Assembly (NCBI GenBank): GCA_049999805.1
Contig: JBNGIO010006165.1
Span: 86,199-150,198 of the forward strand
Direction: 5' to 3'
Length of the DNA stretch: 64,000 nt
DNA from: Folioceros fuciformis
Taxonomy: Eukaryota
The notes under the pieces are model-generated. The model made no database searches, had not been told where the DNA came from, and saw only the letters and a list, made by a program, of their open reading frames with translations. The position numbers were made by a program, and so were the translations under genes. Within the stretch, counting starts at the first letter, position 1; each line of letters starts with the position of its first letter. Positions 26,069 to 27,920 of the stretch are shown here, piece by piece.

Positions 26069-27920
26069 TCAGGGCGATGGCTCCCTGTCCCTGGTGCGCT
26101 TGCGGGCAGCCCTGTTGGCGCCGGACCCGGCCCCAGCCCCAGCCCCGGCGGCGAAGGTCTGGGCCACCAGCAGAGGGAAGGCAATGGTGGCGTCGCAGTG
26201 CACCTGCACGGAGCAATTGCGAGAAGCACACACACATGAACGAAGCTTGCTGGGAAGTGAAGAAAACCGTTCTCAGGGGATTTACGCAAGAAGTACGTTA
26301 CCTTCACTGGCTTTGCGGTGGTGCGGATCTTCCCCCACGAGATGGCCTCGTCCGGGCGGGCTCCAGAATCGCTCCCGTCGTACTCCTGAGCGGTGTTGAT
26401 GAAGACAGCGAAGTCGGCTCCATTGCGCATCATATTTGCGTTGCAGATGTGGTGCTTTGGCAGGCCCCCTCCCAGGATGATGATGCCTGTTTTGTGCGGG
26501 GAGGAGTAAACCACCTCGTCGTCCATCTTCCTCACATCTGCGGGGGATGACGTATGATACACAGCCTCAGGATTGGGAGATTTATGATGGTCACCGGGGA
26601 GCACCAGCTGCGGTATCAGGTGTACCTTGCGCAATGTCTATGATGAGGCCTGGATTGCGGTAGGAGTGGAAGTATATCATGTCTCCCAAGGAACCGTCGG
26701 TTAGGGCGGGGCAGAAAACTGGAATGCCGTTCTACACAGGTTCGGTACATGGATTGTCAGACGCACAGGCTGGCGACGAGAGTAAGGAAAGGAAGGAGTG
26801 GAGGGCCGGTGTCGTACCTTTTGTGCCCAGTACAAAATGGAGCTGGTATCGTCGATTTCCTTCCCCAATCTGGCGATCACCTTGGAAGGAGTCCAGATGA
26901 CGCCCTGGAAACAAGCGAGTTCCAAACACATGACGACACAGCAACGTGACCTCGAAACCGGAGTTGCCTTCAAAGAGAGGAGGAAAAACAAATTTGCTGC
27001 TCGCAGTCACCGACCTTGTCCTTCTGTTCAGCGAGGAGCTGATCCAGAATCGGCATCACCCAAGCTTCGAACTTGCAGTAATTGTCGTTGGGAATCAACA
27101 AGTTGCCAATACGATTCAGCCCTTCCGCACGCAGCTGTGCTCCGGGGAGCGAGAACTCGCCCATGTACGTGGGAGCCAGACATTTGATTATGTCCTCTTC
27201 GATACCACCAGCAGTTGTGACTAACACATCGATCTGCATACACCCATCCACTGCCAACCAGCTGTCACTGGATTTGAACCACGCGATTTAGTGCGACAAC
27301 AGCAGCAGCTGCTGCTGCACACATGGAACTCAAGGACGGTTGATTGTGAGCCCACCATCTTATGCTCCAAAAGATATCGCAGTGTCTCCCGTACCCCCGA
27401 AGACACCAGGTTAGACGTGCAGCCCAGAAATATCTTAGTCTTGATGCTCTGCCTGTACTCCGCCTCCCTTTCTTCTGCCTTACAACCGTCGTCCAGGGGC
27501 TCGTCGCTCAGCCTCCAGTCCAGCTGCATCAATAATATATTGAAATTCCAAGGGCGGGCGCAACCGCCTCAACTTTCCAACACAGTCAATGCCATTCTAC
27601 TGTGTGCAAATTCCCCCACGATGGCTGCAACCCACGATGATGCTGTCACTCACCATTCGATTCACCTCGACGACGGCCCGGCCCAACTGGGTGGCTTGGA
27701 ACCCCGTATGGTACATGGCCTGGAGAAGGCCAGCGTGGTCGGGGCCGTGGTTGAAGTCGAACCCGCACACCAGATTCCCGTCGTCCTGCTGCATTTTGGT
27801 GGCAGATGCCCGGAGCACATTCTGGTGCGCTTCTAGCGGCAGCGCCTTCACGCTGCCCTTGACCAATTCAGGCAGCACTCCAACGTCCAATGCAGAATCT
27901 GGTGCGGGTGTAGCTGCCAT
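26069..27920 (-). CDS. DHS: Deoxyhypusine synthase family protein carrying the homospermidine-synthase-type VxxxD motif, multi-exon
   Basis: [68 protein letters not shown] (catalytic Lys), [14 protein letters not shown]. Confidence 0.93.

Follow-up and report, generated by a model that had tools for sequence, protein, structure and literature searches.

We analysed a stretch of 64,000 nucleotides from Folioceros fuciformis (contig JBNGIO010006165.1, positions 86,199 to 150,198 of the forward strand; the whole stretch is called the window below), which carries on its minus strand a gene of the deoxyhypusine synthase (DHS) family. A preliminary description of this DNA had pointed to the motif VxxxD in the gene, the signature of homospermidine synthases (HSS), and had suggested an alkaloid pathway and a link to Nostoc symbiosis. 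Translation of the three reverse frames and fixing of the borders gave a gene of seven exons at 26069-27920, exactly the span described before, which encodes 405 amino acids including the stop. The spliced model contains VRKMD at 26535-26521, as had been claimed, and also the Asn of NPGL, 11 residues upstream of it. The features of the gene, in coordinates of the window, are:

27654-27920, minus strand: exon 1, 89 amino acids, with an N-terminal part that exceeds that of moss and liverwort DHS by about 25 residues
27356-27523, minus strand: exon 2, 56 amino acids
27015-27233, minus strand: exon 3, 73 amino acids, with the equivalents of human E137, N173 and Y176
26818-26904, minus strand: exon 4, 29 amino acids
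26626-26731, minus strand: exon 5, 35 amino acids plus 1 nucleotide, with the equivalents of human S240, D243, M244, F247 and Y250 and with the NPGL Asn
26302-26537, minus strand: exon 6, 2 nucleotides plus 78 amino acids, containing the motif helix, GGG-x-x-KHH and the catalytic Lys within SWGK
26069-26203, minus strand: exon 7, 44 amino acids plus the stop, a low-complexity Ala/Gly tail and then a basic stretch
26521-26535, minus strand: VRKMD, the HSS-type VxxxD motif, residues 284-288
26503-26535, minus strand: motif helix, residues 284-294 (V284, D288, D289, V291, Y293, S294)
26329-26331, minus strand: intact codon for the catalytic lysine, which corresponds to human K329 in the alignment to human DHS chains

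All six introns are of the GT-AG type and 86-130 nucleotides long, and an in-frame stop lies upstream of the ATG. At the junction of exons 5 and 6 a codon split as G and AT encodes Asp, after which VRKMDDEVV opens exon 6. Exons 2-6 matched the Pfam profile PF01916 (DS) at positions 24-59, 60-131, 132-158, 159-194 and 199-272, tiling positions 24-272 of its 288 with no overlap; exon 6 alone gave an E-value of 1.4e-30, and exon 4 alone gave 25 bits, under the 27-bit cut-off.

We compared this model with two runs from the same organism (organism A): X3, whose RNA status was guessed and whose contig is spliced, and X1, a possible source of the window. A contig of X3 (record 4, 1838 nucleotides) showed no differences from the window and omitted 98, 88, 86, 110, 122 and 130 letters, each time precisely at one of the modelled introns; two intron bins had no cover in this run. 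X1 carried the locus unspliced in one piece, with none of the spliced joints. Since the X3 contig skips the six introns and X1 carries the unspliced locus, the gene is transcribed and spliced as modelled. A pseudogene was ruled out by the intact open reading frame (ORF), the splicing and the conservation of the gene.

The spliced contig also covers contiguously the 5' leader, where a 14-codon upstream ORF (27933-27977, minus strand) shares the frame of the main ORF and stops 12 nucleotides short of its ATG. A GC-rich short repeat at 26100-26150 (minus strand) encodes the Ala/Gly tail of the protein. At its other end the contig extends 179 letters past 25900, into the 3' end of an intronless ORF for an F-box/kelch protein (KIB1-4 beta-propeller; 24371-25963, plus strand) that is convergent with the DHS-family gene. 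This may mean that the two convergent genes overlap at their 3' ends, or else that the contig is an assembly join.

In an alignment of exons 3, 5 and 6 with human DHS chains, the window protein has the counterparts of all of E137, D243, K287, H288, W327 and K329 (human numbering); the names of the catalytic and spermidine/NAD-site residues are those used in the accessible text of PMC10042821, which also names I271 and F272 among the residues of the eIF5A interface. The motif helix carries the equivalents of I271 and F272. Counting back from the anchored alignment, with a check on vertebrate-like representatives, we infer that the two motif positions correspond to human L263 and N267, one helical turn before I271/F272. 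In canonical DHS the second motif position is Asn (plant 273/281), so the window protein, with Asp there, departs from the canonical enzyme. The origin of the gene from a bacterial DHS-like SpeY, or from a bacterial HSS such as that of cyanobacteria, was ruled out by its six GT-AG introns at plant-conserved positions and by its 72-74% identity to land-plant DHS.

We then tallied the motif across the family. Among representatives of 50%-identity clusters (150 proteins listed; 148 new ones tallied, of which 46 were fragments without the motif), Asn occupied the second position in 96 of the 102 alignable proteins (IxxxN 76, LxxxN 12, VxxxN 8), and VxxxD was found in two and a doubtful IxxxD in one. 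Metagenome loci had Asn without exception (73/73; IxxxN 50, VxxxN 21, LxxxN 2) and no Asp, 7 of the 80 loci fetched having been dropped since their match starts after the first residue. A profile search with moss and liverwort DHS and the window exons listed 120 proteins, and the 86 that were new to us were again free of Asp (IxxxN 84, VxxxN 2); they include proteins of Marchantia paleacea, Calypogeia fissa, Diphasiastrum, Selaginella, Ceratopteris, Araucaria and Cryptomeria and a second protein of Adiantum. Riccia and Physcomitrium DHS, retrieved with exon 6 as the query, are IxxxN too. That search against a large protein collection gave 5251 matches, the best 120 of which comprise IxxxN 85, VxxxD 17, VxxxN 11, IxxxD 3, IxxxK 2, AxxxD 1 and one that could not be aligned, a tally biased by the query, which itself bears the Asp-type helix.

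The motif could have meant little had VxxxD been common in ordinary DHS of bryophytes or algae, a possibility that the preliminary description had raised against itself. The ordinary enzymes of liverworts, mosses, lycophytes, ferns and algae were found to be IxxxN or VxxxN. Asp is thus a rare and, as the comparison indicates, derived state. Val at the first position is ordinary in algae (and see the 21 VxxxN among the 73 metagenome loci); because first-position Val alone is common, the unusual part of VxxxD appears to be the Asp.

Near relatives of the window protein were also sought. None of the listed matches of exon 6 exceeded 87% identity, which shows that the searched collection lacks this organism; the metagenome contigs, scanned for near relatives or a paralogue, held nothing close (best identity 82%); and exon 1 as the query gave 325 candidates, none of which scored.

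To see how the rest of the protein compares, we used 140 full-length proteins (350-410 amino acids) from the listed matches, in which 149 columns are at least 97% conserved among the 124 Asn-type rows. Five of these near-invariant columns hold another residue in the window protein (V146I, D202A, N288D, A291V, A294S), and three of the five (N288D, A291V, A294S) lie on the motif helix. For Asn-type proteins the median is 0 departures (Marchantia 3, Ceratopteris 3, Selaginella 2), and proven HSS enzymes show 2-5. Of the 125 rows that are not of the Asp type, 123 have Ala at position 291; Val or Ile was seen there only for the window protein and the HSS of Crotalaria and Parsonsia. At position 294, 124 of the 125 have Ala, and the window protein shares Ser with two Asp-type proteins of Gesneriaceae. 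D289 and Y293 of the window protein also follow the Asp-type trend. The catalytic core is thus intact, with the change focused on the eIF5A-facing helix, as in homospermidine synthases.

The preliminary description had called for a second DHS paralogue with IxxxN. A second DHS-like contig, a candidate for it, was indeed found in the runs of the same organism. It is present in X1 (record 3, 2267 nucleotides), where its depth is 14.4 and that of the window locus 11.4, and in X3 (record 5, 1686 nucleotides), where the corresponding values are 104.8 and 93.1. It matches the window in five conserved patches only (26152-26205, 26360-26401, 27042-27092, 27501-27524 and 27748-27770), and the letters between successive patches (56, 356, 286 and 93) equal the exact distances in the spliced mRNA of the window gene. 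Because this second sequence is colinear with the mRNA, while X1 shows the window gene in unspliced form only, it is intronless in the DNA too and resembles a retrocopy. Its 30-letter loose ends, read by eye, run in frame into an N-terminal stretch like LEG-R and a C-terminal stretch F-V-P-R-V; they resemble liverwort and moss DHS and hint that the copy looks canonical. No second DHS-like stretch was found within the 64-kb window. A contaminant or symbiont was considered an unlikely source of the second contig, whose depth follows the window gene's in both runs, which stem from different samples, and whose loose ends are like those of liverwort and moss DHS. In organism C (run X7) a further contig (record 11), matching the exon 3 patch only, hints at the same paralogue there. 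Because of the Asn-to-Asp change and the second, intronless copy in the same organism, the window gene is probably a re-purposed duplicate and not the housekeeping enzyme.

Two DHS paralogues in one organism also recall Trypanosoma brucei, whose DHS is a heterotetramer of a catalytic and a regulatory paralogue (PDB 6dft). It is conceivable that the two proteins here likewise form mixed tetramers, in which the window protein would be a modulating subunit. DHS is a tetramer, and the accessible part of PMC9295680 discusses both paralogue interference and the heterotetramer-dependent DHS of T. brucei; moreover, the first motif position is placed at the contact between monomers in the passages available from PMC11848025. 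The similar depth of the two contigs in one RNA-like run would agree with this, although depth there is a poor measure of expression. On the other hand, the Val change is argued to reduce heterotetramer formation (PMC11848025, same passages). The window protein is of the plant type, and it differs from the trypanosome regulatory paralogue in that its catalytic lysine and other active-site residues are intact. The regulatory DHS subunit of trypanosomes is catalytically impaired. We therefore regard mixed tetramers as improbable.

The intron positions of the window gene are common to 5 of the 5 plant DHS loci examined (metagenome contigs), and because of this match the window gene, judged by its structure, is the copy that retains the ancestral organization. 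Among the matches listed, the full-length protein is most similar to Physcomitrium DHS (74% identity) and then to Marchantia paleacea and Diphasiastrum DHS (72%); the 72-74% identity extends over about 350 residues, with a core free of gaps. In a tree of 40 rows the window protein falls inside the land-plant clade (support 91/82), with its branching left open at the base of that clade, and a quick tree of 55 rows agrees. The organism had been called a probable bryophyte, which is plausible, but the protein allows no placement closer than the base of land plants. The listed matches of the exon 6 and profile searches included no protein labelled as hornwort.

On the tree, the seven Asp-type rows require seven changes to Asp. 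An ancient clade shared by Asp-type proteins was neither recovered nor rejected; a clade of the window protein with the Asp-type protein of Adiantum was not rejected (p-AU 0.44), nor was it found. The VxxxD protein of Closterium is sister to the IxxxN protein of Closterium (100/99).

Related organisms carry the gene as well. The orthologous locus of organism B (run X4, record 6) differs in the exon 6 region at 14 of 249 aligned letters and shows no gap there; of its six introns, four have other lengths and could not be aligned at 85% likeness. Orthologous pieces are also present in organism C (X7). The alikeness of the exons and the divergence of the introns in organism B fit a coding sequence that is conserved. 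These data bear on the possibility of relaxed constraint, in which the window gene would be a duplicate that lacks any particular function and is drifting towards loss. Its extended low-complexity termini would be in keeping with this, as would the variable length of the Ala/Gly tail, which between the two species differs by 24 letters absent from organism B at 26122. A drifting copy would, however, hardly be expected to keep an intact ORF, to be transcribed with six correct splice sites, to have changed at only 5 of 149 near-invariant columns, and to conserve its exons while the introns diverged. We consider such drift quite improbable, and a duplicate kept for a new activity the better account.

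What that activity might be is suggested by published work on the motif, which we cite for the portions of the papers that are accessible. In the Ipomoea alba enzyme the single change N281D left homospermidine formation about the same but abolished activity towards the eIF5A precursor; its authors propose that the motif may serve to diagnose the loss of DHS activity (PMC9295680). With Parsonsia HSS, deoxyhypusine was detected only for the VXXXN and IXXXN mutants, and not for the wild-type VXXXD enzyme or the IXXXD mutant (PMC11848025). DHS itself is already able to form homospermidine from spermidine and putrescine (PMC13625781); therefore, only the loss of the protein substrate is needed.

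We thus propose, at a probability of roughly 55%, that the window gene is a DHS duplicate that has lost its eIF5A activity and works as a homospermidine synthase. The enzyme would still cleave spermidine with NAD and carry the aminobutyl group as an intermediate bound to the conserved lysine, but the helix that faces eIF5A would have gained the changes typical of HSS, above all Asn288 to Asp, so that aminobutylation of eIF5A would be lost or poor. The aminobutyl group would be passed to putrescine instead, giving sym-homospermidine and 1,3-diaminopropane. In such a division of labour, hypusination would fall to the second, intronless DHS gene with its canonical look.

Several points weigh against this proposal. 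The interface residues N173, Y176, S240, M244, F247 and Y250 are kept, and I271V, F272Y and L295M are conservative changes, so that there is no wholesale decay of the interface. The end branch of the window protein (0.72) is only mildly long, the paths from its node to the moss, liverwort and lycophyte proteins being about 0.5-0.65. The part of the second contig that would hold the motif did not align with the window at 85% likeness, so this copy is only presumed to be of the Asn type and a working DHS; the differences in organisms B and C were read as far as 26434, short of the motif. In the published work, as far as its accessible portions go, one N-IxxxD enzyme gave no homospermidine (PMC9295680), motif, activity and phenotype are only loosely linked, with the motif a poor guide to homospermidine output and to the alkaloid phenotype, and the mutational evidence comes from asterid enzymes only (PMC9295680, PMC11848025).

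A rival possibility is a protein that is still a working DHS, perhaps even the main one, with the Asp tolerated in this lineage through compensating changes and the intronless copy redundant or specialized. All catalytic and most eIF5A-interface residues are kept in it, the exon-intron structure is the ancestral one (breaks the same in 5/5 plant loci), its branch is only mildly long, and the motif is context-dependent in the accessible portions of both papers. The same portions record, however, that Asn-to-Asp removed detectable eIF5A activity in the backgrounds described (PMC9295680, PMC11848025). Moreover, members of the family have held on to the Asn almost throughout (96/102, 73/73 and 86/86 in the three tallies above), and three of the five departures at near-invariant columns cluster on the motif helix and copy the states of HSS. 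We regard a working DHS as unlikely, though it deserves to be taken seriously.

We compared the proposed homospermidine synthase with known systems. The DHS-derived HSS enzymes of angiosperms (EC 2.5.1.45; Senecio vernalis HSS1, Eupatorium, Petasites, Crotalaria, Parsonsia) share with it the DHS fold, the catalytic residues and VxxxD, Val or Ile at 291 (in the case of Crotalaria and Parsonsia), Asp or Asn at 289, apparently the presence of another DHS-family gene in the organism, and a similar number of departures (5 for the window protein, 2-5 for HSS). In contrast to them, the window protein groups with none of these enzymes and sits at the base of land plants, and in its organism it is the copy with the ancestral introns that bears the motif, the other copy being intronless. 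Canonical plant DHS (EC 2.5.1.46; Physcomitrium patens, Marchantia paleacea, Diphasiastrum complanatum) has the active-site residues in common with the window protein, and plant DHS loci have the same intron positions; the canonical enzymes have IxxxN where the window protein has VxxxD, with A291V and A294S, and the window protein has the longer N-terminus and C-terminal tail.

The idea that the Asp change has taken place outside angiosperms was borne out, but the window gene is not a unique case of it. Asp-type paralogues are already in public records of other non-angiosperm streptophytes, namely Closterium species (VxxxD), Ginkgo (record Gb_38966, VxxxD, partial) and Adiantum nelumboides (IxxxD), so that what is new here is the lineage and not the kind. 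Closterium and Adiantum have an Asn-type protein beside the Asp-type one, and the Closterium pair is a lineage-specific duplication. Among the matches listed, an Asn-type companion was present wherever both types were retrieved (Closterium NIES-64 and NIES-65, Adiantum nelumboides, Bertholletia excelsa, Senecio vernalis and Diospyros lotus). The Asp-type or paired records are P0010-P0012, P0032, P0054, P0082, P0083, P0120 and P0121 for Closterium, P0020 and P0320 for Adiantum, and P0081 for Ginkgo. Full-text literature searches, which left most subscription journals outside their scope, found nothing on the Asp-type paralogues of Closterium, Ginkgo or Adiantum and, also where DHS retrogenes were sought, no report of such a paralogue outside angiosperms.

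DHS-like proteins with VxxxD are also found in the angiosperms Trema orientale (P0014), Bertholletia excelsa (P0031), Henckelia pumila (P0058) and Solanum chilense (P0066). To our knowledge, none of these genera is known for pyrrolizidine alkaloids. Their VxxxD fits the published point that the motif outruns the phenotype.

The preliminary description had gone further, to an entry enzyme of a pyrrolizidine or other homospermidine-derived alkaloid pathway, possibly tied to cyanobacterial symbiosis. It is the motif alone that speaks for such a pathway: in the accessible part of PMC11848025 a VXXXD enzyme is reported from all 10 sequenced alkaloid-producing Apocynaceae. The same part of that paper reports many VXXXD species without the alkaloids, and the listing of pyrrolizidine alkaloids in the accessible part of PMC13084218 names angiosperm families only. 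Our full-text searches, of the scope given above, returned no report of homospermidine or HSS in bryophytes, hornworts or ferns. Neither an amine oxidase nor any other pathway gene was found within the 64-kb window, where the DHS-family gene has no gene cluster around it; its neighbours include the F-box/kelch gene and genes for a deoxynucleoside kinase, MTHFR, DHDPS, an EamA transporter and a lipoxygenase, among others. The alkaloid pathway thus gained no support, and neither did the link to Nostoc symbiosis in this analysis; we consider an alkaloid role very improbable.

Three of the neighbouring features deserve mention in their own right. A gene for tRNA-Trp (CCA) at 24268-24339 (plus strand), just upstream of the F-box/kelch ORF, is the only Rfam match in the window. 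A single uninterrupted frame of 425 codons at 3893-5167 (plus strand) holds a whole dihydrodipicolinate synthase domain (E-value 1.7e-74); such a gene would lack introns, although the stretch is otherwise rich in them. The lipoxygenase gene (61565-64000, minus strand) has at least three exons and runs off the end of the window.

The arrangement of the two copies allows a more specific, and distinctly tentative, suggestion. The ancestral, intron-bearing DHS locus may itself have turned into a dedicated HSS after an old retrocopy took over hypusination and, together with the cases in Closterium, Ginkgo and Adiantum, may represent a recurrent route of streptophytes to homospermidine. That the ancestral locus bears the derived motif and the retrocopy looks canonical is an indirect reading of the sequences. 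If the suggestion is true, DHS duplication and the Asn-to-Asp switch would be far older and wider than the angiosperm lineages that make pyrrolizidine alkaloids.

In the searchable literature, recruitment of DHS to HSS is described for angiosperms only, where it serves as a textbook example of how an enzyme of an alkaloid pathway has evolved repeatedly. This pattern of recruitment is extended by the expressed Asp-type paralogue found here at the base of the land-plant tree. Together with the similar pairs in an alga and a fern and with the Ginkgo protein, it suggests that a duplicate may readily lose its eIF5A activity, as a first step that need not involve alkaloids. The case also provides a test, in a distant background, of Asn-to-Asp as a general off-switch of hypusination, and the gene may be an enzymatic source of homospermidine in non-seed plants.

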